A DNA stretch of 64,000 bases from an uncultured Candidatus Saccharibacteria bacterium (GTDB taxonomy: Bacteria; Patescibacteriota; Minisyncoccia; UBA6257; 1-14-0-10-40-38): the NCBI GenBank assembly GCA_964543265.1, contig CAZIWN010000001.1:104577-168576 (forward strand). Direction: 5' to 3'. The notes below the pieces were generated by a model that ran no database searches, was not told the origin of the DNA, and worked only from the letters and a program-made list of their open reading frames with translations. Below are positions 6,311 to 64,000 of this stretch, in pieces. The position numbers and the translations under genes were made by a program. How positions within the stretch are numbered: position 1 is the first letter of the stretch; the number at the start of each line of letters is the position of its first letter.

Positions 6311-6317
6311 ATTTAAA

Positions 6318-6357
6318 ACCGCCTCCTGCATCTCGTTGGTGCAGTGGCGGTTTTTTG
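6318..6357 (+). terminator. Rho-independent terminator of the dnaK operon.
   Basis: Stem ACCGCC...GGCGGT followed by TTTTTT. Confidence 0.8.
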
Positions 6358-6363
6358 TTTGTA

Positions 6364-6483
6364 TCATCCCGTTGCAATAAACCACAGAATGATGAGAAAG
6401 ATGATGGTTGACCATCTCATGTTGAGGATCGAGCACTTCCATGGCTCAGGTTCGCTTACTGTTGGTTCTGGTCGCCTTTTCAT
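6364..6483 (-). CDS. 39-aa hydrophobic peptide (MKRRPEPTVSEPEPWKCSILNMRWSTIIFLIILWFIATG) in a GC-elevated segment.
   Basis: SD site AAGGGGG lies 6 nt upstream of the ATG. The C-terminal half is hydrophobic. It is absent from the 60-aa ORF track and I translated it by hand. Confidence 0.35.
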   Translation of the reverse strand: MKRRPEPTVSEPEPWKCSILNMRWSTIIFLIILWFIATG

Positions 6484-6522
6484 TTTTAACCCCCTTAATC
6501 TAATGAACTAATTTTATTATAT

Positions 6523-6585
6523 AAATTAAAACCACCCACAGCAACCGTAGTCGCTGGGGTGGTTCTGCGTCAGATTGTCTGACGC
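6523..6585 (-). terminator. Two tandem hairpins downstream of the islet lipoprotein gene: GCGTCAGA/TCTGACGC, then CCACCC...GGGTGG followed by a T-tract on the minus strand.
   Basis: Perfect 8-bp and 6-bp stems. The minus-strand sequence continues as TTTTAATTT. Confidence 0.6.
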
Positions 6586-6878
6586 TAGTTCGTCGCGGAG
6601 ATGGTCTCCGCGAGGCGCTCGAGGCCATCGTTCAGCTTCTCGAGGCCGTCGATGATCTTCTCCATCTCGATCGTCTGCTCGCGCATCCGCTCGAGATCGG
6701 TGTCGTCGCTCTTGACGACGTTCGGCAGCATGCGGTCGCGCATCTCGTCGTAGGCCTCCACCTTCTTCGTCGGCACCTCCTCCTTGGCGGGGGAGACGCA
6801 GCCGACGGACAGGAGGCAGAAGAAGGCGGCGATCCAGAACCCGTAGTTGAACGCGAGCATGTTTCGAAGCAAACGCAT
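6585..6878 (-). CDS. Small secreted or lipoprotein-like protein of 97 aa, GC-rich codons.
   Basis: Signal peptide with a lipobox-like LLSVGC. SD site CAAGGGAAAGGGAAAG is upstream of the ATG, and a consensus promoter lies upstream on the minus strand. Confidence 0.55.
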   Translation of the reverse strand: MRLLRNMLAFNYGFWIAAFFCLLSVGCVSPAKEEVPTKKVEAYDEMRDRMLPNVVKSDDTDLERMREQTIEMEKIIDGLEKLNDGLERLAETISATN

Positions 6879-6987
6879 TTTCTTCTTTCCCTTTCCCTTG
6901 GAAAGCTATTCTCTCGCAAGAAGGCGCTCGCCCTCATCGCAAAAGAATGCTTATTTGTTAATGTTCAATCTAACCCTAACCTTTGTA

Positions 6988-7017
6988 ATTATAGCACAAT
7001 ATATTGATATTTGTCAA
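6988..7017 (-). promoter_or_regulatory. Near-perfect sigma70 promoter with extended -10 (TTGACA-18-TGcTATAAT), copy A of the repeated promoter module.
   Basis: Read on the minus strand: CTATTGACAAATATCAATATATTGTGCTATAAT. Confidence 0.7.
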
Positions 7018-7020
7018 TAG

Positions 7021-7074
7021 ATAAGAAAGCCAATAAAATAATAGCCCCGGGTGCGCATTTGCGCATTCCGGGGC
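7021..7074 (-). terminator. Terminator of the 123-aa islet gene: GCCCCGG...CCGGGGC stem with an inner GTGCGCA/TGCGCAT palindrome, followed by a T-rich tract on the minus strand.
   Basis: Read from the sequence. Confidence 0.6.
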
Positions 7075-7080
7075 AGTAGT

Positions 7081-7452
7081 TCAGCTCGAAGCGGTAGCGG
7101 TGGCGGGGAACATCTCGCGAAGTTCCGCGCGAATCTCCTGGGCGAACCTGGTCATCGCCAAGCGCCATTCATCTTCATCGGTATGGATCCTGAGCTTTTT
7201 GGGCCAATACTTCGGGTCGCGCTTGGCCTTGGCCATGTCTGCAAGGTAGACCATCGCATCGAATCCTGTCTTGGCGTTGTTGTCTCCCGGCTTCAGTTCG
7301 AAGTCGAACGACATCTCGCCAATCCCATCGAAATCGGGCGCGGTCACGAAAGCAACGAGCTCTTCGTAGCTTCCAAGACCAAGCCATCCTTCCGGCGCCT
7401 GCTTCTTGCCGGGAAGAAAATGAAGGTCGTCAAGAAAAACATTCCTTTCCAT
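7081..7452 (-). CDS. Hypothetical 123-aa protein, GC-rich codons, unknown function.
   Basis: Clean ORF with SD site AAGGGA upstream of the ATG. Its own promoter (TTGACA-17-TAAACT at 7503-7531, minus strand) and its own terminator flank it. Composition is unlike that of the flanking genes. Confidence 0.5.
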   Translation of the reverse strand: MERNVFLDDLHFLPGKKQAPEGWLGLGSYEELVAFVTAPDFDGIGEMSFDFELKPGDNNAKTGFDAMVYLADMAKAKRDPKYWPKKLRIHTDEDEWRLAMTRFAQEIRAELREMFPATATASS

Positions 7453-7574
7453 TTTTCCCTTGTCTCCGCTTGGGTTTTTCTTTCCCTTAGGTGCTGACGT
7501 ATAGTTTAGCCCAAAACACCCAATTTGTCAAAGTTATATTAATCTACTATCTTATGCTAAAATTACATAAATAA

Positions 7575-8804: not shown

Positions 8805-8833
8805 TTGACAAAAACATGATTTATCTGTATTTT
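8805..8833 (+). promoter_or_regulatory. Candidate promoter TTGACA-17-TATTTT for the islet ORF 8912-9421.
   Basis: Consensus -35 element with a weak -10. Confidence 0.4.
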
Positions 8834-8911
8834 AAATACAGCTCTTACGGTTAGAATCGAATCAATCAAACAAGCTTCCATTAAGTTGAGAAGCATAAGG
8901 GGGAGACTGAA

Positions 8912-9421
8912 ATGCCGGCAACCGCAACAATGATCGAAGTCTTCCAGATTCTCGGATTGGAGATGATAAAGCGTCCAGTTTTTTCGGATCTGCTTCCAAA
9001 AACTGGATGCGTGCCAGATAAGAGAATCACGGAACAAGTAATGGGCGAGCCGTATTCTCTATCAGCTACAAGAGATGACCATTGGCGATCCGGAACAAGA
9101 GAAATCGCTCTAGTTGAACATCCGCCAGTTTGGTCAATGTCTACTGTCTGCGCGAATTCAGCCAAGCTCGGTCTGGGTCTATTGGATCCATACGATGTTC
9201 TATATTTCGCCATCAAGCATCCAGGGGTCCAAAGGTCTGGCCCAATCGCCTTCGTTCATCAGCCGCTTTTTCTAGGCGAGAACCGGAGAGGCCTTTTTGC
9301 TCTCGTTCTCGGTTTTGATGGGCAAGACAGAACCATTAATCTTGTCAGCTGGTTCGATACTTGTGATGCCGTTCCCGGAGTTCGCTACGCCCTTTTGAAG
9401 AGGCCAGAGAAGAAGAAGTAG
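8912..9421 (+). CDS. Hypothetical 169-aa protein, intermediate to high GC, unknown function.
   Basis: Strong SD site AAGGGGGAG lies 7 nt upstream of the ATG, and a terminator follows the ORF. Its composition is foreign to the host. Confidence 0.55.
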   Translation: MPATATMIEVFQILGLEMIKRPVFSDLLPKTGCVPDKRITEQVMGEPYSLSATRDDHWRSGTREIALVEHPPVWSMSTVCANSAKLGLGLLDPYDVLYFAIKHPGVQRSGPIAFVHQPLFLGENRRGLFALVLGFDGQDRTINLVSWFDTCDAVPGVRYALLKRPEKKK

Positions 9422-9433
9422 TTCAAGGTCTCA

Positions 9434-9474
9434 AAATCCCGCGCATGAGGTAAGTCCAAAGCGCGGGTTTTTTA
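9434..9474. terminator. Bidirectional terminator CCCGCGC...GCGCGGG flanked by A- and T-tracts.
   Basis: Sits between convergent genes. Confidence 0.75.
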
Positions 9475-9885
9475 ATTCAAAAACAAATACGCCCAAATTG
9501 CTACGAAAAGAATGGGCAAAAATAGGAGCCAATTCCATAAGCGGTTTTTTCCAATCAAAACATCTTTAACAGATCCTTCTTTATGTGGCCACATCTGAAA
9601 ATCTTCATATCCAAGTTCTTTTTCAATCGCCCCGATTCTTCTAATCCAGGCATCTCTCCAAAGTTTCTGTTTCCTTAATAAGAAAAACCAATAGAAAGAC
9701 AGGATTAATCCCGTAAGCTGGGCGATATGTAGATATTCTGGGCTGACTTTGCCGGCAAATATCGCCACAAAGATGGCGCTTTCAATCGCAAAGAAAAAAT
9801 TGTATAGGCGATACAGCCCATCTATTTCAGATCGAACTTGAGCGATAAACCGATCATACTGCTTCTCCAAAAATTCTTTATTCAT
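9472..9885 (-). CDS. Hypothetical membrane protein of 137 aa.
   Basis: Two to three TM helices. The start overlaps the upstream gene by ATGA. Confidence 0.5.
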   Translation of the reverse strand: MNKEFLEKQYDRFIAQVRSEIDGLYRLYNFFFAIESAIFVAIFAGKVSPEYLHIAQLTGLILSFYWFFLLRKQKLWRDAWIRRIGAIEKELGYEDFQMWPHKEGSVKDVLIGKNRLWNWLLFLPILFVAIWAYLFLN

Positions 9886-14775: not shown

Positions 14776-14781
14776 TGCGGC

Positions 14782-14851
14782 TGCGGGACCTGGGCTCGAA
14801 CCAGGATACCAGCTTTCAGAGAGCTGTGTCCTACCATTAGACGATCCCGCA
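14782..14851 (-). tRNA. tRNA-Gln (anticodon CUG) with a U1:A72 pair; CCA is not encoded.
   Basis: Cloverleaf folded by hand: acceptor TGCGGGA/TCCCGCA, U8, anticodon stem CAGCT/AGCTG with loop CTCTGAA, and T-arm CTGG TTCGAGC CCAG. Confidence 0.8.
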
Positions 14852-25796: not shown

Positions 25797-26141
25797 GTCG
25801 CTTAGGTGATTACACGGCATCGCAAAAAAATGCCGTGAGGAAAGTCTGGACTCCTGTCTTGCGAGAAATCGCAAGTAAACGTACCGGTTAAAAGCCGGCT
25901 GGGTAATCCAAGAGGTGCGAAAAGTGACGCTCAAAGACGAAAGAATTTGAGAATCCGCTTGCGGATTAACCTTCTCTATAGTGAAGGAGAGGGGTGCAAC
26001 GGCTAAATCCTTACGAGGTGCAAGATCGTGCTCTAAATTAAAACTTAGAGAGAATCGCTTGAGCCTTAAAGTAATTTAGGGCCTAGATAAATTATCACCG
26101 CTTCGCCGAAAGGCGGAAACAGAATCCGGCTTATTAGCGAC
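25797..26141 (+). ncRNA. rnpB: RNase P RNA (bacterial type A).
   Basis: Conserved GAGGAAAGUCUGGACUCC (P4 5' strand), ACAGAAUCCGGCUUA (P4 3' strand) and a P1 pairing GTCGCT/AGCGAC, followed by a terminator. Confidence 0.85.
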
Positions 26142-26155
26142 AAAAAATATCAGAA

Positions 26156-26180
26156 GTCCGCGCCTAAAGCGCGGATTTTT
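26156..26180 (+). terminator. rnpB terminator TCCGCGC ctaaa GCGCGGA followed by TTTTT.
   Basis: Read from the sequence. Confidence 0.8.
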
Positions 26181-26196
26181 GATATATGGTTTAATA

Positions 26197-26225
26197 TTGC
26201 TTTTATGACAACAATCTGTTATTAT
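26197..26225 (+). promoter_or_regulatory. Candidate promoter TTGCTT-17-TATTAT for the small membrane ORF.
   Basis: Read from the sequence. Confidence 0.4.
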
Positions 26226-26269
26226 GATTAACAGTTCTTCGGTTAAGGTCATTGGGAGGGAAGGCCTTG

Positions 26270-26458
26270 GTGGAATTCGGAAAGAGGCTTTGCTTCGCTC
26301 TGGTCTGGACTGTTTCCTGGGTTCTTCCGAAGGAATCTAGGGACGAGGAAGAAGAGGTGAGTGGTGTCTTGAAGCTTCTCCTCTTCGCCCTTGTCGGAGT
26401 TGGAACGGCCTTGGTTCTTCACTTCTATCGGATGAGGCAAAACTTCATCCAGATTTGA
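26270..26458 (+). CDS. Small two-TM membrane protein of 62 aa from the GTG start (68 aa if the TTG at 26252 is used), GC-rich.
   Basis: SD site GGGAGGGAAGG lies 5 nt upstream of the GTG. Two hydrophobic helices are separated by an acidic EEEE loop. A terminator follows. Confidence 0.45.
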   Translation: MEFGKRLCFALVWTVSWVLPKESRDEEEEVSGVLKLLLFALVGVGTALVLHFYRMRQNFIQI

Positions 26459-26477
26459 AAGAAGGCCAAGTGTCTCA

Positions 26478-26558
26478 AATGGCGTGCTGCCACCAAGTAG
26501 CGCGCCATTTTTTTTGTAAAAAAAGACCACCCATTACTCGCTCGCGAGCTAGGGTGGT
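26478..26558. terminator. Pair of convergent terminators sharing a central T8/A7 tract: ATGGCG...CGCCAT followed by T8 on the plus strand, and ACCACCC...GGGTGGT followed by a T-tract on the minus strand.
   Basis: Read from the sequence. Confidence 0.65.
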
Positions 26559-26570
26559 TTTCTGTCGCTG

Positions 26571-26789
26571 TTAACGAGGAGTAGTCGCTTCCCCGAACAG
26601 CATCGGTACTTCTATCAGATGCTTTTTATTGCATCCCTTCTTGCATTTCGGATGCGTCGAGCTCCCAAAATATGTATTGCCCTTTGGGATCTTACCACCG
26701 CACCCAGTGCAGGTACGATCCAAATGGGCAACATGATGTTCTGGAACCTCATCATCCTCTTCGTCGCTTCCGCCGTTGCCTCCACGCAT
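26571..26789 (-). CDS. Small zinc-ribbon protein of 72 aa from the ATG (CTGCGGKIPKGNTYFGSSTHPKCKKGC), acidic N-terminus.
   Basis: SD site GGGGAGGG lies upstream of the ATG. Its own promoter TTGAAA-17-TATAGT (26845-26873, minus strand) and its own terminator flank it. Confidence 0.5.
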   Translation of the reverse strand: MRGGNGGSDEEDDEVPEHHVAHLDRTCTGCGGKIPKGNTYFGSSTHPKCKKGCNKKHLIEVPMLFGEATTPR

Positions 26790-26876
26790 TGGGTTCGCCC
26801 TCCCCGTGAATGGATTGATGGTCAAGAAACGTGTACTGATATTTACTATAAAACATTCTTAAATAATTTTCAAAAT

Positions 26877-26920
26877 GAAAAGGCCCGGCTAGAACTATAC
26901 GTTCTATAACCGGACCTTTT
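26877..26920. terminator. Bidirectional terminator with a long imperfect stem GGCCCGGCTAGAAC tatac GTTCTATAACCGGACC, flanked by A4 and T4.
   Basis: Read from the sequence. Confidence 0.65.
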
Positions 26921-26946
26921 GCTCCGTCTTGCGGAGCCGTCGCCTT

Positions 26947-27153
26947 TCAGGCGGTGGCAACTGCGAGTTGCCGGCTCTCGGCGCGGAGCTCTGCGAGTTC
27001 TCCGCTCGAGAACAGATTGAGCAGTTCAGGCCACGTCGGCATCCTGCCGAGCTTCCGAGCCTTCCGCGCGATGATCTGCCGCATCGTGGGCACCGCGACC
27101 TCTTCTGAGCACTGATCGCAACCATTCGCGCAGCACTTGGATTCGCACGCCAT
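26947..27153 (-). CDS. Cys-rich 68-aa protein (N-terminal CESKCCANGCDQC, basic/helical C-terminus).
   Basis: A GGGGGG tract lies 7 nt upstream of the ATG. Copy B of the consensus promoter sits about 90 nt upstream. Confidence 0.5.
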   Translation of the reverse strand: MACESKCCANGCDQCSEEVAVPTMRQIIARKARKLGRMPTWPELLNLFSSGELAELRAESRQLAVATA

Positions 27154-27246
27154 CGTAGTTCCCCCCGAATGCCATTCTGATTTCGCCCTAAGGCTCGTCA
27201 GAGGACTTGTGAATGACTAGGGCCAATCCCTTATCATCACTCCTAT

Positions 27247-27276
27247 ATTATATCATACAATATATTAATTTGTCAA
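27247..27276 (-). promoter_or_regulatory. Near-perfect sigma70 promoter TTGACA-18-TGaTATAAT, copy B of the repeated promoter module.
   Basis: Read on the minus strand: CTATTGACAAATTAATATATTGTATGATATAAT. Confidence 0.7.
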
Positions 27277-34502: not shown

Positions 34503-34532
34503 TTGACAATATATCTATTTAGGGAATAAAAT
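34503..34532 (+). promoter_or_regulatory. Consensus-like promoter TTGACA-18-TAAAAT at the start of a GC-rich islet.
   Basis: Read from the sequence. Confidence 0.6.
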
Positions 34533-34590
34533 TAAATTCCACGCGCTTTAAGAGGAAGCGCGCAGAAATCACTTGTCGAAGGGAGATTGA

Positions 34591-34821
34591 ATGGGTGCGA
34601 AGAGGGGATCTACGGTGAGGCAGGGATCTGTTGGCGGCGCCTCTTCTTCTACTGTCTTGAACCGACTGGCTCAACCCGACTGGAAGTTCAAGGGGGTTGA
34701 ACCGATTCGCGGGGCGATGAAGGGGTGCAGGTCTTGCACCTTCGATGGCGTGCCTCACGGTCAGTTCAGGGTGGGTGGTCCGAGGGGCGTCGTCTCCAGG
34801 TGTCCTTGCACGAACAGGTGA
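34591..34821 (+). CDS. Small 76-aa ORF (CRSC...CPC) in a GC-rich islet; coding status uncertain.
   Basis: SD site GAAGGGAG lies 6 nt upstream of the ATG. The Gly/Arg/Ser/Val-rich composition is typical of a random GC-rich translation. A 5' UTR hairpin CGCGCTT/AAGCGCG precedes it and a strong terminator follows. Confidence 0.35.
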   Translation: MGAKRGSTVRQGSVGGASSSTVLNRLAQPDWKFKGVEPIRGAMKGCRSCTFDGVPHGQFRVGGPRGVVSRCPCTNR

Positions 34822-34825
34822 TTTT

Positions 34826-34866
34826 TCAGCCCGGCTTTCCGAAAAGGAAGCCGGGCTGTATAATTT
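34826..34866 (+). terminator. Terminator CAGCCCGGCTTTCC gaaaa GGAAGCCGGGCTG followed by TATAATTTAT.
   Basis: 13-bp near-perfect stem. Confidence 0.8.
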
Positions 34867-34872
34867 ATATAA

Positions 34873-35256
34873 ATGAAAAAAGTTATGGTTTTCGGCGACT
34901 TCGATGGCCTTCATGAGGGTCATAGATTTTTTCTACGAAGCGCCAGAAAGTATGGAGATTATTTAATAGTGGCAGTTTCTCAAGATCATATTATCAAGCA
35001 TTTAAAAGGAGAATATCCAATAAAGAATTTTGCCGAACGCTTTGAGCACTTAGAAAATTATGACGATGTAAATCAAGTTGTCATTGGTGATCCGGAAAAC
35101 TCCCCAATTAATTTGATAAAAAAATATAATCCCGATATAGTTGTCTTATCTAAAAATCAAGAATTTTTACAAAACGAGATAGAAAGAAATTACGAAAATT
35201 TTTCTAAAAAAATTGAATTAAAGATAGTAGACGTTGGAGAAATAAAAATTTATTAA
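34873..35256 (+). CDS. Cytidylyltransferase-like (HxGH) nucleotidyltransferase domain protein (FMN adenylyltransferase-like).
   Basis: Motif VFGDFDGLHEGHRFFL. Confidence 0.55.
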   Translation: MKKVMVFGDFDGLHEGHRFFLRSARKYGDYLIVAVSQDHIIKHLKGEYPIKNFAERFEHLENYDDVNQVVIGDPENSPINLIKKYNPDIVVLSKNQEFLQNEIERNYENFSKKIELKIVDVGEIKIY

Positions 35257-37334: not shown

Positions 37335-38399
37335 TTGTTGAACTATCTAATGAATAAAAAACTAAAAATCACTCTACTTTTTGGAGGAAAATCAGCCGAA
37401 CACGAAGTTTCTATGCTTTCGGCAAAAAATGTTTTTAATGCTCTTGATAAGAATAAATACGAAGTTTTTTTAATCGGAATTGATAAAACGGGTTATTGGA
37501 GTTTTTTTGAAGACTCCAAAATCTTATCCGAAAAAAGCATAGAAAAAATAAACAGAAATCATAATGGATTCTTAGATCCCAACTGCGGAAAAATTTTAGT
37601 TGATTCAGATGTAATTTTTCCAGTCCTCCACGGTGGCACAGGAGAAGATGGAACAATTCAAGGATTTTTCAAATTAATAAATAAACCATTCGTCGGCCCA
37701 GGAGTTTTAGGGTCTGCTTTGGGGATGGATAAAGATGTAGCTAAGCGCTTATTAAATCAAGCGGGGATTGCTACGGCTAAATTTATTACTCTTAGAGATT
37801 ATGAAAATATAGATTTTAAAAAAATAAAAAAACAGCTAGGGCTTCCGCTTTTTATAAAACCAGCCAACTCCGGTTCTTCGATCGGAGTTTCTAAAGTTAA
37901 AAAAGAATCAGAATTTACACTAGCCATTAAAGAGGCTTTTAAATACGATAGTAAAATATTAATCGAAGAATTTATAGACGGCAGACAAATTGAATGTTCT
38001 ATATTGGGAAATGATAATCCAATAGCTTCAATCCCAGGAGAAGTTATCACAACTCATGAATTTTATTCATACGAGGCAAAATATTTAGACAAAAACGGTG
38101 CAATTCTAGAAATTCCAGCTAAATTAAATAAAAAAATCTCTAAACAAATTCAAGAAATATCATTAAAAACTTTTAAAGTCTTAGAATGTTTTGGTTTAAG
38201 TCGTGTCGATCTTTTTTTAGATAAAAAGGGAAAGATTTATGTTAATGAAATAAACACTCTTCCAGGATTCACTTCAATCAGTATGTATCCCAAACTCTGG
38301 GAAGCTAGCGGAATAAGTTATTCAGATTTAATAGATAAACTCATCGAATTAGCAATAGAAAAATTTAAAAAAGACAGTAAATTAAAAACTTCTTATTAA
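37335..38399 (+). CDS. ddl: D-alanine--D-alanine ligase.
   Basis: N-terminal KI.LLFGGKSAEHEVS..SA and an ATP-grasp domain. Confidence 0.9.
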   Translation: MLNYLMNKKLKITLLFGGKSAEHEVSMLSAKNVFNALDKNKYEVFLIGIDKTGYWSFFEDSKILSEKSIEKINRNHNGFLDPNCGKILVDSDVIFPVLHGGTGEDGTIQGFFKLINKPFVGPGVLGSALGMDKDVAKRLLNQAGIATAKFITLRDYENIDFKKIKKQLGLPLFIKPANSGSSIGVSKVKKESEFTLAIKEAFKYDSKILIEEFIDGRQIECSILGNDNPIASIPGEVITTHEFYSYEAKYLDKNGAILEIPAKLNKKISKQIQEISLKTFKVLECFGLSRVDLFLDKKGKIYVNEINTLPGFTSISMYPKLWEASGISYSDLIDKLIELAIEKFKKDSKLKTSY

Positions 38400-38445
38400 A
38401 AATTAAACCGCCAGGACCCTTGTTGGGCGCTGGCGGCGTTTAGTT
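38400..38445. terminator. Bidirectional terminator CCGCCAG...CTGGCGG.
   Basis: A-tract upstream; T-tract on the minus strand. Confidence 0.65.
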
Positions 38446-38451
38446 CAATAC

Positions 38452-38802
38452 TTAGCCCGTAGGCTCAGTATACGTAGCATCAAGAATAAAACTCTTCTTT
38501 TGATCAAAGGTTCCACTGAATTTATCATCTCCGCGCTTAACAGCAATTCTAACAGGAACCCACACGTGTCCGAATGTTGCATCTGCCTTGCGATACATCG
38601 TACAGGTTACCGAAACCGGAAGCAGGCCCTGAGCTGGTCCACGATTTTTAAGACTTAAGGTAAATGTTCTGATGTCCAGAAACCGCGTAGCTTCGATATC
38701 CATAGCATTCCACACGGAGTCATTATCTCCGTCAACCGTGCTAATTGCGATTTGCGTCATCCTGATTGCCAAAAGCACGCCAGCAGCCAAGCTCATTTTC
38801 AT
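38452..38802 (-). CDS. Secreted 116-aa protein (signal peptide MKMSLAAGVLLAIRMTQIAIS), GC-rich codons.
   Basis: SD site GGAG lies 6 nt upstream of the ATG at 38802. Copy C of the consensus promoter lies upstream. Confidence 0.5.
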   Translation of the reverse strand: MKMSLAAGVLLAIRMTQIAISTVDGDNDSVWNAMDIEATRFLDIRTFTLSLKNRGPAQGLLPVSVTCTMYRKADATFGHVWVPVRIAVKRGDDKFSGTFDQKKSFILDATYTEPTG

Positions 38803-38940
38803 CGGACATCTCCTTGTCAAAAGGGGATTCACTCCAGGGGTCAACCCAGAAAGTGGCAGCCATCACGGCAGCACCTTAGAAGCAAGAATAAGTCTTCTTT
38901 CCAAAGTGCCACCGTGACAACCTCTCAATATGCTTATAAA

Positions 38941-38970
38941 ATTATAGCACAATATTACTATAAAAGTCAA
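38941..38970 (-). promoter_or_regulatory. Near-perfect sigma70 promoter TTGACT-18-TGcTATAAT, copy C of the repeated promoter module.
   Basis: Read on the minus strand: CTATTGACTTTTATAGTAATATTGTGCTATAAT. Confidence 0.7.
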
Positions 38971-41353: not shown

Positions 41354-41382
41354 TTGACATTTAGATTCCTTATTGTTAAAAT
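41354..41382 (+). promoter_or_regulatory. Consensus promoter TTGACA-17-TAAAAT.
   Basis: Read from the sequence. Confidence 0.65.
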
Positions 41383-41389
41383 TGTAGGA

Positions 41390-41707
41390 CAAGCGAGTTT
41401 AGAGGTCGCAAGTCAGCCTTCTGACGCCAAAGTTCTCAAGCTCCTTCTTCGCACTTCGCAAGCGTCTTTAGGTCTAAAAAATGGACTCTCGACCTTCATC
41501 GGGAGTTGACCTTCCGTTTTCACTGGTCACAAATCCAGTGACCGCTGGCTAACCGATTACGACCAGGTTATCCGACACGGTGAGTAATCTCTGGGACAAT
41601 TAGATGTAACTAACCAGGGAGCGGTAAGAAATTGCGCCTCAAAAACTCGCGCGGTGCCCCAAGCTTCGAGCAGGGTGAAAGACAACCCTGCTCGAAGCTA
41701 CTTTTTT
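41390..41707 (+). ncRNA. Candidate ncRNA of about 320 nt (GC about 50%), bounded by the consensus promoter and a 15-bp perfect hairpin terminator AGCTTCGAGCAGGGT...ACCCTGCTCGAAGCT followed by T6.
   Basis: No ORF longer than 28 aa on either strand and no SD site. Identity unknown; I found no match to tmRNA, SRP RNA or RNase P RNA motifs. Confidence 0.45.
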
Positions 41708-41723
41708 AAAATAAATATAAAAC

Positions 41724-42719
41724 ATGAAATTATCCATAGGTATAGTTGGTCTCCCAAACGTTGGTAAATCGACTTTATTTAAAATAATCACAAAAAACGA
41801 AGTTAATATAGCTAATTATCCATTTTGCACAATTGATCCAAACGTAGGAGTCGTTTCTGTACCAGATGAAAGATTGGATAAATTAAGCGATATGTCTAAG
41901 TCTGCCAAAAAAGTACCAGCTATTATTGAATTTTATGATATTGCTGGTCTTGTTAAGGGCGCCTCTTCTGGTGAGGGATTGGGTAATCAGTTTTTATCTC
42001 ACATCAAAGAAACGGAGGTAATAGTCCAAGTATTAAGATGTTTTTCTTCTGAAGAAATAATTCACGTTGAAAACAGAGTTGATCCTTTAACTGATTTAGA
42101 AATTATAAATACCGAATTAATTTTAAAAGACTTAGACGTTGTCTCTAAAAGATTTGCCAAAATAGATTCAGAAATAAAATCAGGCAACAAACAGGCAGTT
42201 AAAAACAAAGAGGTTTTAGCTAAAATAAAAGAAAAGCTTGAAAAAGGGGAATTAATTAGCGATTTTAGAGATGAATTAATAGTTAAAGAACTCCAGCTTT
42301 TAACTGCTAAAAAGCAAATCTATTTTTTAAATGGTAAACCAGAAGATGTTAGTGAAAAATTGAAAGCCAAAATAGCTTCTTTAAATTGTGAGTATGTCGT
42401 TTCTGACTTATCTACCGCAGAAAATATTCCGGAACTGATTAAAAAAGCTTACAAAGTTCTAGATCTTATTAGTTTTTTCACTACTGGAGAAGACGAATCA
42501 CGCGCTTGGACTATTAAGCGTGGTTGGAAAGCGCCACAAGCTTCAGGGGTTATTCATACCGACTTTGAAAAGAAATTTATTCGCGCAGAGGTAATTGCTT
42601 CAGATAAATTATTAGAATGCGGTTCTTGGGTTAAAGCAAAAGAAAAAGGATTAATCAGGGTAGAGGGTAAAGAATACGAGGTGAAAGATGGTGATGTTTT
42701 AGTTGTCCGACACAGCTAA
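41724..42719 (+). CDS. ychF: Ribosome-binding ATPase YchF (Obg-family GTPase).
   Basis: Motifs GIVGLPNVGKSTLF and ANYPFCTIDPNVG, plus a C-terminal TGS domain. Confidence 0.9.
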   Translation: MKLSIGIVGLPNVGKSTLFKIITKNEVNIANYPFCTIDPNVGVVSVPDERLDKLSDMSKSAKKVPAIIEFYDIAGLVKGASSGEGLGNQFLSHIKETEVIVQVLRCFSSEEIIHVENRVDPLTDLEIINTELILKDLDVVSKRFAKIDSEIKSGNKQAVKNKEVLAKIKEKLEKGELISDFRDELIVKELQLLTAKKQIYFLNGKPEDVSEKLKAKIASLNCEYVVSDLSTAENIPELIKKAYKVLDLISFFTTGEDESRAWTIKRGWKAPQASGVIHTDFEKKFIRAEVIASDKLLECGSWVKAKEKGLIRVEGKEYEVKDGDVLVVRHS

Positions 42720-47526: not shown

Positions 47527-47554
47527 TTGACTAAAGATAATATTTGTCTATAAT
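47527..47554 (+). promoter_or_regulatory. Consensus promoter TTGACT-16-TATAAT.
   Basis: Read from the sequence. Confidence 0.6.
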
Positions 47555-47599
47555 AATAAAACCCTTAATTTTGAGGGGGTAAAAGGGAGGGATTGATAG

Positions 47600-47791
47600 A
47601 TGAGCTCTTCTGGTTCTGCGACGGCTGCACCAATCATCAGGGGACGTTGCTTAGAGCTTCGCTCCAACGCCCTTTCTCGTCGGGCTAGAAACGTGAATCA
47701 TCGCGCATTGAGCGATCACGCTCGCACCTGCGCCAGCTGCAGGGACCACCTTGCATCGCTCGCCGCCAAGCAATCGAGCTCGGCGTCTTGA
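47600..47791 (+). CDS. Small 63-aa ORF with an HxxxCxxC (ZAS-like) motif (HARTCASC); coding status uncertain.
   Basis: SD site AAGGGAGGG lies 9 nt upstream of the ATG. The Arg/Ser/Ala-rich composition could be a random GC-rich translation. A terminator follows. Confidence 0.35.
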   Translation: MSSSGSATAAPIIRGRCLELRSNALSRRARNVNHRALSDHARTCASCRDHLASLAAKQSSSAS

Positions 47792-47796
47792 GCCAA

Positions 47797-47838
47797 ATAC
47801 TCCGATAGGCCACGGGTCTGTCGGAGTATTTTATTTTC
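47797..47838 (+). terminator. Terminator ATACTCCGA...TCGGAGTAT followed by TTTATTTT.
   Basis: Read from the sequence. Confidence 0.75.
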
Positions 47839-48940
47839 CTAAGCTTTCAATAATCGCAATCTCAAGCGGTATAAAAGAAAAAGGAGAATACCTCATTTCA
47901 GAATAAGCTCTAATTAACGATTTTAATAGATTAATTAAAAACTTTTCATCAGCGCTAATGGAAAGATTTTTTAATTTATTCAGTTCGGTAGTCGTAAATT
48001 CTTCCACAAATATTTTTTCAAAATCAGGATTTGCTTTCAGGGCTAAAATTTTTCTCAAAAAATGTATCAATTCTTTAGCTGAATCAACAATACTTATTCC
48101 GTTGTTATAAATCGCATTTACCGCCTCGATAGATTCTTTAGTTTTTTTATTTAATATCAACTCTGCTAAATTAGAAATCTTTTTAAATCCGGCTTTTCCT
48201 AAAATAGATTCAACCTTGTCGGCGGTAATTTTTTCTTCCAAACTTCCCATTTGGTCAAGTATAGATTCGGCGTCTCTAAATCCTCCTTCTGCGGTTTCTG
48301 CAATGAGTTCTAATGCCTCATCTTCTATGTCGATTTTTTCAGTTTTAGAGATGTCTTTTAATTTTTTAAATAATTTCTGAATAGGAATTTTCCTAAAATT
48401 AAATTTTTGGACACGCGACAAGATCGTTCCAGGAACTTTTTCATATTCCGTCGTAGCTAAAATAAATACAGCGTGAGCTGGTGGCTCTTCTAATGTCTTT
48501 AATAGCGCATTAAAAGCTTCTTTAGTTAACTGATGAACTTCGTCTATAATAAAAACCTTATATTTTGAAGATGTGGGGGATAGTTTAATAGATTCTTTTA
48601 AATCTCTAATTTCATCTATGCCCCTATTTGAAGCCGCATCCATTTCCACGACATCTAATGATTTTCCAGAATCGACATCTATACATTTAAGGCATTCATT
48701 GCAAGGCTCTCCTTTGGCGGCAAATTTTTTATCACTTTGGCGCGTTTCGCAATTTAATATTTTAGCCAAAATTCTAGCAACCGTCGTTTTTCCTGTTCCT
48801 CGACTGCCATAAAAAAGATAGGCATGCGAAATTCTGTCTTGAATTGCCGCGTTTTTTAATGTTTCAGTAATATGGTCTTCACCTAAAACATCTTCTAATT
48901 TTTTAGGTCTATATTTTCTATATAAAGCTCCTCCTTTCAC
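47831..48940 (-). CDS. dnaX: DNA polymerase III gamma/tau subunit (short form).
   Basis: Motifs GSRGTGKTT and a zinc module C..C..C. Confidence 0.9.
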   Translation of the reverse strand: MKGGALYRKYRPKKLEDVLGEDHITETLKNAAIQDRISHAYLFYGSRGTGKTTVARILAKILNCETRQSDKKFAAKGEPCNECLKCIDVDSGKSLDVVEMDAASNRGIDEIRDLKESIKLSPTSSKYKVFIIDEVHQLTKEAFNALLKTLEEPPAHAVFILATTEYEKVPGTILSRVQKFNFRKIPIQKLFKKLKDISKTEKIDIEDEALELIAETAEGGFRDAESILDQMGSLEEKITADKVESILGKAGFKKISNLAELILNKKTKESIEAVNAIYNNGISIVDSAKELIHFLRKILALKANPDFEKIFVEEFTTTELNKLKNLSISADEKFLINLLKSLIRAYSEMRYSPFSFIPLEIAIIESLGK

Positions 48941-57415: not shown

Positions 57416-58549
57416 ATGTCTAAAATCAGAATACTCCTAGCGGGTGGTGGCAGTGGTGGGCACATAATGCCCCTTTTAGCTGTTGCTGATGAGGCTTGGA
57501 GATATGCGGATGAAAATAAGTTAGAACTTAAGATGAGATATTTTGGTAATCCTCTGGAATATAAAAATGAACTATTGCTTCGCAAAATTCCAATATCTAA
57601 AGTTGCTTCTTCAAAAATCAGAAGATATTTTGATCTTCGTAATTTTTTAGATATTTTTAAGTTTTTTTTCAGTCTTTTTCAGTCTTTTTGGAAAGTTTAT
57701 CTTTTTATGCCTAATGTATGTTTTTCCAAAGGTGGTCCTGGGGCTATTTCTGTGATCTTGGCCTGTAGATTCTATAGAATTCCAGTCATTATTCACGAAT
57801 CAGATTCAATTCCCAGCATAACAACTAAAATATCTTGTAGATTCGCCAAGTCTGTACAATTAGCTTTTCCGTCTGCTAAAGACTATTTTCCTGGATGGAA
57901 AAATATAAAAATAGTTGGCAATCCTGTAAGAAAGATAGTTTCTCAGATTATTAGCAAGAGAGAAGCAAAAGAATTTTTTGGTTTTAATCCAGATCTTCCA
58001 GTAGTTCTTTTTGCTGGCGGATCTCAAGGCTCGAATCATATTAATGATTTTGTTTTGGTTAATTTAAAAAAATTTCTGCCAAATTTTCAGATACTTCACC
58101 AAGTTGGAGTAGAAAATATTAATGCCTATAAAGCGGAGTATGAGGTTATGTCTAGAGATTTATTACCAGAATTAAAATCGAAATATAAATTTTTTGCTTT
58201 TTTTAAAAATGAGATAGGGGAAAGTTATAATTCGGCAGATGTTTTTGTTGGCCGTGCCGGAGCCGGACAAATATTCGAAGTGGCCTCATTAAAAATCCCA
58301 AGCATTTTAATTCCTCTTCCAGATTCAGCCAATAATCATCAATTTGAAAATGCAATTAAGTATGAAGAATCAGGGTCGTCTTTTACCATAGAGCAAGACA
58401 ATTTAATCCCAGAAGTTTTAATTCAAGAAATCGATAGTATCTTAAATAATCCAGATAAAAGAAAACAGATGGAGTCTTCGGCCGGGCAATTTTACAACCC
58501 AAACTCAGCAAGGCTTATCGTCCAAGATATTTTCGCTTCAGTTAAATAA
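57416..58549 (+). CDS. murG: UDP-GlcNAc:lipid I GlcNAc transferase MurG.
   Basis: Motif GGGSGGHIMP and a GT-B fold. Confidence 0.9.
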   Translation: MSKIRILLAGGGSGGHIMPLLAVADEAWRYADENKLELKMRYFGNPLEYKNELLLRKIPISKVASSKIRRYFDLRNFLDIFKFFFSLFQSFWKVYLFMPNVCFSKGGPGAISVILACRFYRIPVIIHESDSIPSITTKISCRFAKSVQLAFPSAKDYFPGWKNIKIVGNPVRKIVSQIISKREAKEFFGFNPDLPVVLFAGGSQGSNHINDFVLVNLKKFLPNFQILHQVGVENINAYKAEYEVMSRDLLPELKSKYKFFAFFKNEIGESYNSADVFVGRAGAGQIFEVASLKIPSILIPLPDSANNHQFENAIKYEESGSSFTIEQDNLIPEVLIQEIDSILNNPDKRKQMESSAGQFYNPNSARLIVQDIFASVK

Positions 58550-58618
58550 AAAATCATATTTTTTTACCCTATTTACAGGGTGGATTTTTTATTATTTAAA
58601 TGATACTATTTATAGACA

Positions 58619-60097
58619 ATGCCACCCAAAGAACTCAAAGAAATAAGGGTTCGTATAGCCCCAAGCCCTACGGGTTTTTTTCACTTTGGAACCGCAAGAA
58701 CAGCTCTTTTTAACTATCTTTTTGCCAAAAAAAACAATGGCAAATTTATCGTAAGAATTGAAGATACTGACAAGGAGAGATCAAAGCCAGAATATGAGAA
58801 AGATATTTTAGATGGTCTGCGATGGCTTGGACTTAATTCGGACGAAGATCCGGTTAATGGTGGTAAATTTGGTCCATATCGCCAAAGTGAAAGAACAGAC
58901 ATTTATGCAAAATATTTAGAAAAGCTTTTAAAAGAAAATAAAGCTTATTATTGTTTTTGTAGGGCCGAAGATTTAGAAGAAGAAAGAAAGGCTATGATGG
59001 AATCTGGTATTGCTCCAAAATATTCCGGAAAATGCAGAAACATATCTCATAAAGAATCTGAAGATAAAGTTAAGCAAGGAGCTCCATCTGTAATCAGATT
59101 TAAAATGCCAGAAGAAAAAATTCATTTCAATGACTTAATTAAGGGCAAGATAGAAATGGATTTATCTTTGTTTGGAGATCAAGTCATAGCCAAAAATATT
59201 CGTGAACCTCTTTATAATTTTGCAGTTGTCGTTGATGATCACGAAATGAAAATCTCTCACGTTATAAGAGGGGAAGATCATTTATCAAACACTCCTAAAC
59301 AAATTCCATTGCAAAAAGCTCTCGGTTTTGAACATGTCATATATGCTCATTTGCCTCTTATTTTAAATCCAGATAGAAGTAAGATGTCTAAAAGATTTTT
59401 AGACGTTTCTATTAAGGATTATAAGGACAAGGGCTATCTTCCTTCGGCCATGGTTAATTTCATGGCTTTAATTGGTTGGCATCCAGAAGCAAAGTCTGGA
59501 ACTTCTGAAAAAGAAATTTTTAATATAAAAGAATTAATTTCAGAATTTAATTTAGAAAGAGTTCAAAAGGGTGGAGGTATTTTTAGCGAAGAAAAATTAG
59601 ATTGGATTAATTCTCAATTTATTAAAAGTATGGAAGATTCCCATCTCTTAGAAGAACTTAAATTAAGGGGTGAAATAAGTGCTGAAAACAAATTTTTAGA
59701 TAAAGATTCTATCTTAAAAATAATTAAAATATCTAAAGAGAGAATGAAAAAATTAAGCGACTTTAAAGATTTAGCTCAATTTTTCTTTATGCTTCCTTCT
59801 TATGATAAAAATCTTTTAATTTGGAAAAAATCTAATTTAGCCGGCGCAGTTGTTTCTCTTAATAAATGTTTAGAGGTTATGGAATCTATTAAAATAGATA
59901 ATTTTAAAAAAGAAATTATAGAAAAAGAATTAAACGTTTTTGCCGATAAAATGGGGAAGGGTGATATCTATTGGCCTCTTAGAGTCGCTCTTTCTGGAAA
60001 GGAGTTTTCTCCTCCTCCGCAAGAAATTATGGATATAATTGGCAAAGAAGAGTCTATTAAGAGAGTAAAATTTGCCATAGAGCATATAGAAAAATAA
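58619..60097 (+). CDS. gltX: Glutamyl-tRNA synthetase.
   Basis: Motif RIAPSPTGFFHFGTARTALFNY (HIGH region) and KMSKR. Confidence 0.9.
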   Translation: MPPKELKEIRVRIAPSPTGFFHFGTARTALFNYLFAKKNNGKFIVRIEDTDKERSKPEYEKDILDGLRWLGLNSDEDPVNGGKFGPYRQSERTDIYAKYLEKLLKENKAYYCFCRAEDLEEERKAMMESGIAPKYSGKCRNISHKESEDKVKQGAPSVIRFKMPEEKIHFNDLIKGKIEMDLSLFGDQVIAKNIREPLYNFAVVVDDHEMKISHVIRGEDHLSNTPKQIPLQKALGFEHVIYAHLPLILNPDRSKMSKRFLDVSIKDYKDKGYLPSAMVNFMALIGWHPEAKSGTSEKEIFNIKELISEFNLERVQKGGGIFSEEKLDWINSQFIKSMEDSHLLEELKLRGEISAENKFLDKDSILKIIKISKERMKKLSDFKDLAQFFFMLPSYDKNLLIWKKSNLAGAVVSLNKCLEVMESIKIDNFKKEIIEKELNVFADKMGKGDIYWPLRVALSGKEFSPPPQEIMDIIGKEESIKRVKFAIEHIEK

Positions 60098-62318: not shown

Positions 62319-62469
62319 TTTAAATAAAAGGGTAGAAATATGATAAATAATCATAAAATCATATAAAGTTTATTTTATATAGTTTTATGACTATATATGT
62401 CGCAAAAGGTATATTGGGCGACAGGTAATAGATATAGTCCCCGATAGATCAAGATAAGATTTTTTTGAA

Positions 62470-62520
62470 AATTAAAAAGCCCCTCTCCTATCTCTTTCGA
62501 GTATAGGATTGGGGCTTTCG
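62470..62520 (-). terminator. Minus-strand terminator AAAGCCCC...GGGGCTTT followed by a T-tract on the minus strand.
   Basis: Read from the sequence. Confidence 0.6.
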
Positions 62521-62521
62521 T

Positions 62522-63220
62522 TCAGTGATTCCAGTTTGTAGCGACTTCGCTACCAAACTGGTTTGCCAGACAATTCCTGAAGCGTTCGTCTTCCTCCTTT
62601 TCCCTCTTCAGGATGTCTCCAATTCCCTGCTGGTTCTCTTCGAGCTTCTCGAAGCTCATTCCGCAGAAGGCGCTTCTCGCCAATTCTTCGCAGTTGCGAA
62701 GCTTGGCAAAGCCGACGACGAGATCATTCAGCTGGGACGGCGACAAATCGTGGGGGTTGATCTCAGGCAAGGTCTCGAATAGATTCATCGCCATCTTTTG
62801 GAGATGATCGAGATCCATCTTGCCTTCTGGGTCCTGCAAGTAATTCCAGGATTGATGATCAACCAAGCTCTTCTTATGGAGCTTGGTAAGTTCGTGCTTG
62901 AGAAAATCGTTTTCCTTCTTCAGGGCTTCGATTTCCTCGTGAGCGCTTGTGAGCTCTTGGGTGAGCTCGAGGATGTTGCTCTGGCTCTCGCCAGTTTCGA
63001 TCTGAGGCTCGATTGCGCTCCTCTCGGCAACGATCTCCGTTTCCGGAGCCGTCGGCGCAAGTGTCACAGCCTGGTAGGCTTCGATCTTGGTAGGGTCATC
63101 TCCAACGAAGTTTTGTTGAGGGTGACAACCATAATCGACGCCGTGATTGTTGTTTCCTGAAATTGCGAACATGGCAACGCAGAAAACAACAAGCGCAATC
63201 AATCCGACAATTCGCTTCAT
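62522..63220 (-). CDS. Secreted coiled-coil protein of 232 aa with GC-rich codons.
   Basis: Signal or TM anchor MKRIVGLIALVVFCVAMFAISG, heptad-rich middle and SD site AAAGGAG upstream. Second gene of a two-gene minus-strand operon. Confidence 0.55.
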   Translation of the reverse strand: MKRIVGLIALVVFCVAMFAISGNNNHGVDYGCHPQQNFVGDDPTKIEAYQAVTLAPTAPETEIVAERSAIEPQIETGESQSNILELTQELTSAHEEIEALKKENDFLKHELTKLHKKSLVDHQSWNYLQDPEGKMDLDHLQKMAMNLFETLPEINPHDLSPSQLNDLVVGFAKLRNCEELARSAFCGMSFEKLEENQQGIGDILKREKEEDERFRNCLANQFGSEVATNWNH

Positions 63221-63249
63221 AGCTGACAGCTCCTTTGTCTTTCGAGTGA

Positions 63250-63295
63250 TCCCGGAAGGATCTCTTTCACTACTTAAGCCGAGATCCTTCCGGGA
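63250..63295 (-). promoter_or_regulatory. Perfect 15-bp intercistronic hairpin TCCCGGAAGGATCTC...GAGATCCTTCCGGGA with no U-tract.
   Basis: Sits between two co-oriented genes; possible processing, stability or attenuation element. Confidence 0.45.
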
Positions 63296-63311
63296 ATCTT
63301 CTCGGCTGCCG

Positions 63312-63851
63312 TCAGTTGTGGATCTTGTTGTTCGAGCCCTGGTAGTTTTCGACGTTGGCGTCGCTCCTGCCGTTCAAGTCAACGTCGTTGCCGTTGTTCC
63401 CGCCATCGGGACCAGTGAGCAACCCACCACCTTCGAAGTCGTGATCGTTGTTGTCGCAGTTCTTCTCGTTGACGCCGCCACCGTTCTTGATGTCGATGTC
63501 ATTCCCGTCGCAATCGTCCAGCTTGATCTTGCCGCCATCGGCATCGATCTCGTCGCCGTTCAGGCCTTCACCGCGGGCCAGTACGCCCTTCTTGATGGTG
63601 ATCTTGGCCTTCACGTAGTCGCCGTGATTCCAGATCTCTTCGACGACGACGTTGTCCGCGCTGTCTGGGCTGTTGGTGACCTTTCCTTCTCCGTCCGGAG
63701 CGGTCCAGGTCTGGCCAGGTCCCAGGCGAGTCGTGTGCGTTCCCGATGACGATCCGCTCGTCGCCGCGTTGGCGACCGACGTCCCTCCTCCGATCGCGAA
63801 GATCGCGACCAGAGCGAGTGCGAGCAAGGCGAAAATCTTCCTCGGATTCAT
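63312..63851 (-). CDS. Secreted Asp/Gly/Asn-rich protein with DxDxDG-like repeats; putative Ca2+-binding protein.
   Basis: Signal peptide MNPRKIFALLALALVAIFAIGGGTSVANA. Loops DADGGKIKLDD, DGNDIDIKNGG and DNNDHDFEGGG. SD site AGGAG upstream. Confidence 0.55.
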   Translation of the reverse strand: MNPRKIFALLALALVAIFAIGGGTSVANAATSGSSSGTHTTRLGPGQTWTAPDGEGKVTNSPDSADNVVVEEIWNHGDYVKAKITIKKGVLARGEGLNGDEIDADGGKIKLDDCDGNDIDIKNGGGVNEKNCDNNDHDFEGGGLLTGPDGGNNGNDVDLNGRSDANVENYQGSNNKIHN

Positions 63852-64000
63852 GCGTTCACTCCTGTGTTTTGGCCCGTTTTCGGTTCTTAAGCGAAATCGG
63901 GCTTAAGCCTACCTCCCCTTCTTTCGTCGCTGTTTTGTCAAGGTGCTACGAATCTAGGGCTACACACCCCAGTTTCATACTTAACATTACTCCTTTAACA

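Follow-up and report, generated by a model that had tools for sequence, protein, structure and literature searches.

At the right-hand end of a 64,000-nt stretch of contig CAZIWN010000001.1 (GenBank assembly GCA_964543265.1; hereafter the window, meaning the whole stretch that was analysed) lies a GC-rich islet that a preliminary description had read as a two-gene operon for exported or membrane-anchored proteins, carried on a genomic island. The operon is real, complete and vertically inherited: its two genes, here called A and B, code for proteins, are found as a pair in nine lineages, keep in most of them a stable RNA structure at the same position between them and, in the case of gene A, retain a high GC content at third codon positions (GC3) in every lineage. 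The explanation that we regard as probable, though not strongly so, is that the segment 62467-63989, together with a -35 box just outside the window, is a single self-contained transcription unit of a member of the Paceibacterota (candidate phyla radiation), that it encodes a surface-protein module in which the ratio of A to B is set by the structure of the spacer, and that its transcript has been selected to be rich in GC and poor in U. The island, with its implied recent acquisition, finds no support, as the unit is complete, syntenic, diverged in step with its neighbours and represented by a deletion remnant in one relative.

On the minus strand the operon runs from a sigma-70-type promoter through a leader of about 125 nt, gene A, a structured spacer of 91 nt and gene B to an intrinsic terminator (Table 1), and both reading frames lie where the preliminary description had placed them. 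The islet (62461-63980) has a GC content of 53% in a window of 35%, with a sharp step from 25% to 51-60% at its border. High GC ends at about 63976, and both promoter boxes are already AT-rich. Look-ups with the exact proteins retrieved two contigs from other sequencing runs, L001 (6.85 kb, SRR12487045) and L002 (DRR736439; related loci are referred to throughout by such L numbers), which match the window with no differences over 4802 and 1637 nt, respectively, and span both GC junctions. Past position 64000 the sequence of L001 supplies the -35 box and then AT-rich DNA, so that the earlier expectation that more of the island lay beyond the window was wrong; it had also been suggested that a GC profile continuing unchanged past the window would betray a chimera, and the opposite is seen, since GC falls.

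Table 1. Features of the A-B operon (positions in the window; all on the minus strand).
Feature	Position	Strand	Remarks
-35 box TTGACA	window-equivalent 64008-64013 (L001 2038-2043)	-	8-13 nt past the window end; 18-nt spacer to -10
-10 box TAATGT	63984..63989	-	sequence read
5' leader (predicted), ~125 nt	63852..63976	-	51% GC, 15% U; transcription start inferred from the -10 box
Leader hairpin P1 (CUGGGG / CCCUAG, GUGUA in loop)	63954..63972	-	
Leader box GCACCUUGACAA	63935..63946	-	after P1
Shine-Dalgarno AGGAG, gene A	63859..63863	-	9 nt before ATG
Gene A, 179 aa	63312..63851	-	predicted signal peptide 1-29 (ANA/A); GC3 0.79
Three-tier intercistronic RNA structure (predicted), 93 nt	63223..63315	-	-45.5 kcal/mol, z -5.8; the 15-bp hairpin is its tip
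Apical perfect 15-bp hairpin, 16-nt loop	63250..63295 (arms 63250-63264 / 63281-63295)	-	no U-tract
Shine-Dalgarno AAGGAG, gene B	63230..63235	-	9 nt before ATG; partly occluded by the outer stem
Gene B, 232 aa	62522..63220	-	GC3 0.63
Intrinsic terminator, GC stem and U-tract	62467..62518 (stem 62476-62491 / 62503-62518)	-	loop 11 nt

Both protein families are very small, with gene A homologues amounting to 4 clusters in a set of 5.8 billion proteins and to 8 representatives in one of 1.84 billion, and gene B homologues to 4 clusters; homology can be followed at the protein level down to 27-36% identity. Protein-pattern scans for gene A found no match in GTDB genomes, JGI metagenomes or IMG/VR, and the exact terminator pattern none in JGI metagenomes. 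A is followed directly by B in L003, L005, L006, L008, L014, L015 and L016. In the window the operon is flanked by genes for GltX, an M23 peptidase and FemAB, with a cell-wall and division cluster (MraY, FtsW, MurG, M23 peptidase, FemAB) nearby, and L003 as well as the distant L008 show this synteny with FemAB, M23 and GltX. Gene A of the window is 80% identical to that of L003 and 46% to that of L008, while FemAB, M23 and GltX show 74-86% and 41-56% identity in the same comparisons; gene A is thus as diverged as its neighbours, and the operon has co-diverged with the genome. The ratio of nonsynonymous to synonymous divergence (dN/dS) of gene A is about 0.12-0.37 across pairs at a synonymous divergence (dS) of 0.6-1.5, in keeping with the coding status first proposed for the operon, and in both genes the differences are greatest at third positions. 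Gene B evolves fast, with only 38% identity between the window and L003, where the neighbours have 74-86%. The nearest representative genome in GTDB, a Candidatus Paceibacterota metagenome-assembled genome from deep Lake Baikal (Baikal-deep-G188, L009; M23 peptidase 81% identical), has no operon, but between FemAB and the next gene (L009 10233-10653) the terminator, some 170 nt from the 3' end of B and a promoter remnant are left, which indicates a deletion rather than an insertion site that was never filled. L014 (ENA ERZ21828290, an 81.8-kb contig of a 46% GC genome) and L016 (JGI 3300037479, a 69% GC genome) carry the module too, in unrelated genomic surroundings; an archaeal/eukaryotic-type ribosomal S27 (PF01599) on a cut gene of L014 hints at an archaeon, which could not be confirmed.

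The composition of the operon departs from that of its genome throughout the transcript. GC3 in the genes that adjoin A and B is 0.21-0.23, and gene A has a GC3 of 0.70-0.85 in all lineages, on backgrounds of 0.22, about 0.46, 0.33-0.58 and 0.94. Lysine is encoded in A and B by AAG 25 times and never by AAA (background genes: 334 AAA, 90 AAG), TTA and ATA codons are absent, and GC3 is high at pyrimidine-ending and purine-ending codons alike. Among four close A sequences the invariant third positions are G or C in 51 cases and A or T in 3, and polarised changes comprise 19 from GC to AT and 10 from AT to GC, compared with a ratio of about 14:1 that we estimate for neutral decay. Leader (51% GC) and spacer (53%) match the genes in GC-richness, the adjoining intergenic DNA having 25%, and U makes up 14-20% across the transcript; thus the anomaly tracks the transcript and not codons alone. 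The whole transcript, untranslated parts included, is GC-rich and stays so in every lineage whatever the background; neither recent transfer nor misassembly accounts for it, and selection acting on the mRNA is the cause that we favour, with moderate confidence. An apparent enrichment of GATC and TCGA (20 and 18 copies, 3.3-3.6 times the mononucleotide expectation) was set aside, as trinucleotide and codon content accounts for all of it (GATC 20 observed, 19.3 expected).

The perfect, U-tract-free 15-bp hairpin that had been noticed between the genes is borne out, and about 3e-5 perfect 15-bp repeats would be expected in the islet by chance. It is the tip of a larger predicted three-tier fold whose outer stem pairs CUGACGGC, which holds the UGA stop codon of A, with GCUGUCAG, which lies between the Shine-Dalgarno sequence and AUG of B; L003 and L006 are predicted to fold in this way too. 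Compensatory changes preserve the apical stem in L007. At the same position L005, L008, L014 and L015 have stems of 13 bp or more that are unrelated to it and again lack a U-tract. A stem of at least 13 bp thus follows gene A in 8 of the 9 lineages, the GC-rich L016 giving no signal, and the spacer folds with z-scores of -3.2 to -6.5 in seven of them (window, L003, L005, L006, L007, L008, L015; L014, -1.85). This recurrence of a stem-loop in most lineages with unrelated sequences argues that the hairpin is functional, as the preliminary description had supposed. Protective 3' structures that reshape operon stoichiometry have been described, and malEFG, puf and the Clostridium cip-cel operon are examples of differential decay or selective RNA processing and stabilisation (SRPS) (PMC5927463, PMC8219983). 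Like these, the A-B operon has a true terminator at its end and, immediately after the upstream and presumably more abundant cistron, a very stable stem-loop that lacks a U-tract and whose position is conserved among relatives. It differs in that its hairpin would form the tip of a larger predicted fold joining the stop codon of A to the ribosome-binding region of B, a putative additional element of translational coupling that has not been described for malEFG, puf or cip-cel.

The terminator that closes the operon had likewise been recognised correctly: a GC-rich stem is followed on the minus strand by TTTTTAATTTT, with the U-tract UUUUUAAUUUU, as in intrinsic terminators. A simple terminator scanner misses it because its loop is 11 nt long. 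The terminator sequence TAGGAGAGGGGCUUUUU is invariant in all loci that hold the operon end, even where the B proteins are about 30% identical. One arm, TAGGAGAGGGGCTTTTT (62474-62490), is likewise invariant, and such conservation of sequence is unusual for a terminator.

Gene A encodes a protein with a predicted signal peptide, made up of an n-region (MNPRK), an h-region (IFALLALALVAIFAI, mean Kyte-Doolittle hydropathy 3.17) and a putative VANA/A cleavage site. This n-h-c layout, already discerned in the preliminary description, is kept in homologues and has the features of a Sec type I signal. The mature protein would have 150 residues, of which 43% are D, N or G, and a net charge of -14. 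An AlphaFold2 model from four sequences is all-beta, with a predicted local distance difference test score of about 88 over residues 34-179; it consists of stacked coils of short strands and has structural matches to solved beta-helices, and mature A is predicted to fold as a right-handed beta-solenoid. The DxDxDG-like loops first ascribed to A were overstated, as a single fitting motif stands (DVDLNG, residues 156-161) and RTX and EF-hand patterns are lacking. A check for the Ca2+-binding motifs of RTX, EF-hand and Excalibur proteins gave no family match: A has no GGxGxD, and none of the 12 family members (0/12) has a Pfam match at E<=1 to RTX/HemolysinCabind (PF00353); a regular expression for the 12-residue EF-hand loop finds none in A, whose model is all-beta and which has no such Pfam match; and for Excalibur, dockerin or TSP3 repeats there is one DVDLNGRSD motif and no Pfam match at E<=1. 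DUF3060 and DUF2807 (the GIN domain) are each matched by 1 of the 12 members (E 0.0035 and 0.048, neither reported as passing the curated cut-off), and the protein of the window matches neither. Nor does the pair fit curli CsgA/CsgB, which are defined by a match to the curlin repeat hidden Markov model and by a homologous pair of major and nucleator subunits.

Among known proteins A may be compared with the Ca2+-dependent beta-helical antifreeze/adhesin region MpAFP RIV (PDB 3p4g) and with RTX beta-rolls, at 3% sequence identity; unlike RTX beta-rolls, it has no GGxGxD, no xGTGND repeats and no HemolysinCabind match, but a single DxDxNG motif. It may also be compared with autotransporter passengers and with the small beta-helical 'putative adhesin' domains (DUF2807/GIN, DUF3060 and DUF4097-like; PDB 3ljy, 3pet, 4ygu), all matches to which fall under curated cut-offs, whereas A is a stand-alone protein of 150 aa with its own predicted signal peptide and a dedicated helical partner gene. 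Among distant A homologues (alignment A13, P0007-P0012) most carry CxxCD(H/x)N where the window protein has EKNCDNN, and this may be a metal or redox site that was lost in the sub-lineage of the window.

In the model of B an anchor helix (residues 2-22) is joined by a disordered linker (23-76) to a helix of 43 residues (78-120), after which comes a helical bundle (123-229). The signal anchor and the coiled coil of the preliminary description correspond to the single N-terminal hydrophobic helix and to the long helix 78-120, which has weak matches of coiled-coil type. On this model B has almost no cytoplasmic part, so that both A and B would act outside the cell. Searches of Pfam, NCBIfam, PADLOC, PHROGs and PDB sequences found no family for either protein, and structural matches of B are generic. 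Matches of B to DivIC (PF04977; 19.2 versus 28.9 bits) and FtsL (TIGR02209; 12.6 versus 42.45 bits) are under the curated cut-offs. Like FtsB, DivIC and FtsL, B carries a leucine-zipper-like coiled coil after an N-terminal membrane helix, and it adjoins a cell-wall and division cluster, but it has twice their length, including a disordered linker of 55 residues and a helical bundle of 105, and the A-B module stands in unrelated contexts in other lineages. The coding RNA of B is itself strongly folded, with z-scores of -7.2 against dinucleotide shuffles and -7.3 against synonymous-codon shuffles, a gain of about 60 kcal/mol over the shuffles and many local perfect hairpins. The z-score is -6.1 in L006 and -3.4 in L003, and 0.1 to -1.5 in neighbouring genes. 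Between the window and L006, dS in B is about half of that in A; of the RNA pairs of B compared in L006, 22 are kept and 30 broken, which is suggestive only.

These features lead us to propose the following model for the operon. A would leave the cell by way of Sec and fold into a small right-handed beta-solenoid, acidic, rich in D, N and G and possibly stabilised by Ca2+, and B would be held in the membrane by its N-terminal helix, with the flexible linker, coiled coil and helical bundle projecting outside the cell. We infer that A may be an abundant surface or extracellular subunit and B an anchored stalk or partner that holds or assembles it. The spacer hairpin would set the ratio of A to B after transcription: being a stable stem-loop at the 3' end of the A segment, it would protect that segment against 3'-to-5' decay, in the manner of differential-decay or SRPS operons, and in the sub-lineage of the window the outer stem would in addition tie the stop codon of A to the ribosome-binding region of B, so that translation of B would depend chiefly on the opening of this stem by ribosomes that complete A. 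Finally, selection would have favoured an mRNA that is poor in U, GC-rich, structured and long-lived.

Several other explanations must be weighed against this model. An assembly chimera or contig join would explain the abrupt GC step at the window edge and nothing else; because L001 and L002, from other sequencing runs, are identical to the window across both GC junctions, the junction is not a chimera, and as orthologous loci share the layout the probability of a misjoin is negligible. It is formally conceivable that the islet is a structured non-coding RNA locus and its open reading frames (ORFs) artefacts of GC-rich sequence, given that other islets of the window have no convincing ORF, that one of them is RNase P RNA, that the RNA of B is hyper-structured and that a long antisense ORF is present at 63147-63749. 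This is extremely improbable, since the substitution patterns are those of purifying selection, start codons, Shine-Dalgarno sites and putative signal peptides are conserved, the AlphaFold2 models are confident and homologues extend to remote protein identities. The antisense ORF, of 200 aa, was dismissed as the usual shadow of a GC-rich gene. Acquisition of an island from a GC-rich donor, either recently or long ago with slow amelioration, is unlikely, though several observations favour it: the compositional step is sharp, the protein families are tiny, the module is found in unrelated contexts including L014 and the 69% GC organism of L016, changes towards AT outnumber those towards GC, and the operon is missing from the close relative L009. 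On the other hand the synteny extends to the distant L008, gene A has diverged as far as the flanking housekeeping genes, a GC3 of 0.70-0.85 persists in every lineage at the synonymous divergence given above, and the absence from L009 is a deletion that left recognisable remnants. Neither an integrase, nor flanking direct repeats, nor an adjacent tRNA is found at the islet, the only tRNA of the window lying at 14779-14851. In its recent form this explanation is rejected on the grounds of synteny, co-divergence and the remnant in L009. Classical genomic islands share with the A-B unit an atypical composition, sharp borders and variable presence among relatives; however, the unit is richer in GC than its host and not in AT, has none of the mobility features just listed, and has co-diverged with its neighbours while its composition has not moved towards that of the host.

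The GC-richness might alternatively stem from GC-biased gene conversion at a recombination hot spot, driven for example by diversifying selection on B, with no selection at the RNA level. The fast evolution of B and the high GC3 at both classes of codon are what this predicts, but the GC-rich domain runs from the predicted transcript start to the terminator with no fading into the flanks, the slowly evolving A is more GC-rich than B, and GC3 is the same across very different genomes, and we judge gene conversion as the whole explanation distinctly improbable. As causes of the GC-richness in particular, slow amelioration after an ancient transfer and biased gene conversion are both possible. 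With regard to function, a compact two-gene unit with a small, putatively secreted, glycine-rich protein and a membrane protein, patchily distributed, could also represent a toxin or bacteriocin (A) with its membrane immunity or export partner (B). This is very unlikely, as A is the conserved member of the pair and B the variable one, B is predicted to be almost wholly extracellular and to have one anchor helix where immunity proteins typically have several membrane passes, and searches against PADLOC, PHROG families and the toxin models of Pfam were negative for both proteins. The surface-protein module with a structured, selected transcript nevertheless has several observations to contend with. 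Ca2+ binding by A is without support at the family level. The outer stem that joins stop codon and ribosome-binding region is predicted in the window, L003 and L006 only, and covariation in the alignable spacer set is weak, with 3 double changes, a number reached by 39 of 500 shuffles; given such statistics on a small set, the case for the hairpin rests on the structure recurring with unrelated sequences. The excess of structure in the RNA of B is lineage-specific, the z-score being only -0.4 to -1.8 in L005, L008 and L015. GC-to-AT changes still outnumber the reverse by 2:1, so that slow decay is possible. Finally, highly expressed housekeeping genes of the window, DnaK and L27 among them, are not GC-rich, and high expression alone is therefore insufficient to explain the bias.

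The regulatory region upstream of gene A is conserved as well. The promoter sequence TTGACAAAA is unchanged in five loci, and TTGACA is found in L008 too. Hairpin P1 of the predicted leader is seen in 6 of 6 Paceibacterota-type loci with at least 4 different stem sequences, and the GCACCUUGA portion of the leader box that follows it is invariant in 6 of 6 lineages and occurs once in the window; a search of the window for the box (GCACCTTGA) and for the promoter sequence gave no second copy of either. The box may act as an anti-Shine-Dalgarno sequence or bind a factor: in 3 of 5 minimum-free-energy folds it pairs with CAGGAGUG, in the Shine-Dalgarno region of gene A, with no covariation in support. 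The Shine-Dalgarno sites that had been noted ahead of both genes are present. Rfam 15 covariance models gave no match to leader or spacer at the gathering threshold or at E<=5, and the sole Rfam match on the operon is a chance-level ohsC on the terminator.

Beyond the window end, L001 continues with small GC-rich units that are separate from the operon and with an AT-rich gene whose product is a 255-aa PD-(D/E)XK/Cas4-like exonuclease. Directly upstream of the operon (L001 1765-1968) is a 67-aa ORF with one transmembrane helix, a GC content of 0.50 and its own promoter-like sequence and hairpin terminator; L003 has an ABC-transporter gene in its place. Two GC-rich units of L001 (340-540 and 600-880) resemble small structured RNAs: their promoters are AT-rich, long stems close their 5' and 3' ends, U-tracts are present and Rfam has no family for them. 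Within the window other GC-rich islets with near-consensus sigma-70 promoters lie at 6380-7560, 8805-9560, 26150-27276, 34503-35000, 38380-38970, 41354-41760 and 47527-47950. Of the nine highest-ranking sigma-70 promoter matches in the window, six are immediately followed by DNA with a GC content of 50% or more (P ~2e-6), which indicates that the islets are strongly promoted transcription units. Several have neither a convincing ORF nor an Rfam match. RNase P class A RNA (25797-26145, plus strand; 95.5 bits, just below the Rfam gathering score of 100) accounts for part of one islet. Candidate genes preceded by Shine-Dalgarno sequences are a 97-aa putative lipoprotein with a coiled coil and the lipobox LSVGC (about 6585-6878, minus strand), a 169-aa ORF (8912-9421, plus strand) and an ORF of about 125 aa for a putatively secreted protein (38452-38844, minus strand); GC3 of these three is about 0.44-0.6, below that of gene A. 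In L009 the interval between the MurG-family gene and GltX holds a GC-rich unit (5890-6340, about 450 nt) that has a TTGACA...TATACT promoter and lacks an obvious ORF; this unit is absent from the matching place in the window (58549-58619), from which it follows that islets are gained and lost.

Bacteria of the candidate phyla radiation live in attachment to other cells, and their surface proteins are for the most part without an assigned function. The A-B operon adds to them a conserved module of two proteins, predicted to be extracellular, that stands outside all curated families and comes with a full regulatory anatomy. Its GC3 of about 0.8 has been kept in a genome of 0.22 for longer than synonymous sites take to turn over, within borders that are those of the transcript, which is hard to explain by mutation bias or transfer alone. 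We suggest tentatively, as an idea more doubtful than the account of the operon itself, that this AT-rich ultra-small genome keeps a distinct class of strongly promoted, GC-rich and U-poor transcripts, coding and non-coding, of which the A-B operon would be the extreme coding member, and that their composition would be a 'stability code' at the RNA level (for example, evading AU-specific RNases), held by selection beyond synonymous turnover and independently of the genome background. If such RNA-level selection is true, GC-rich islets in AT-rich genomes would not simply be foreign DNA or non-coding RNA, and synonymous composition would carry regulatory information.

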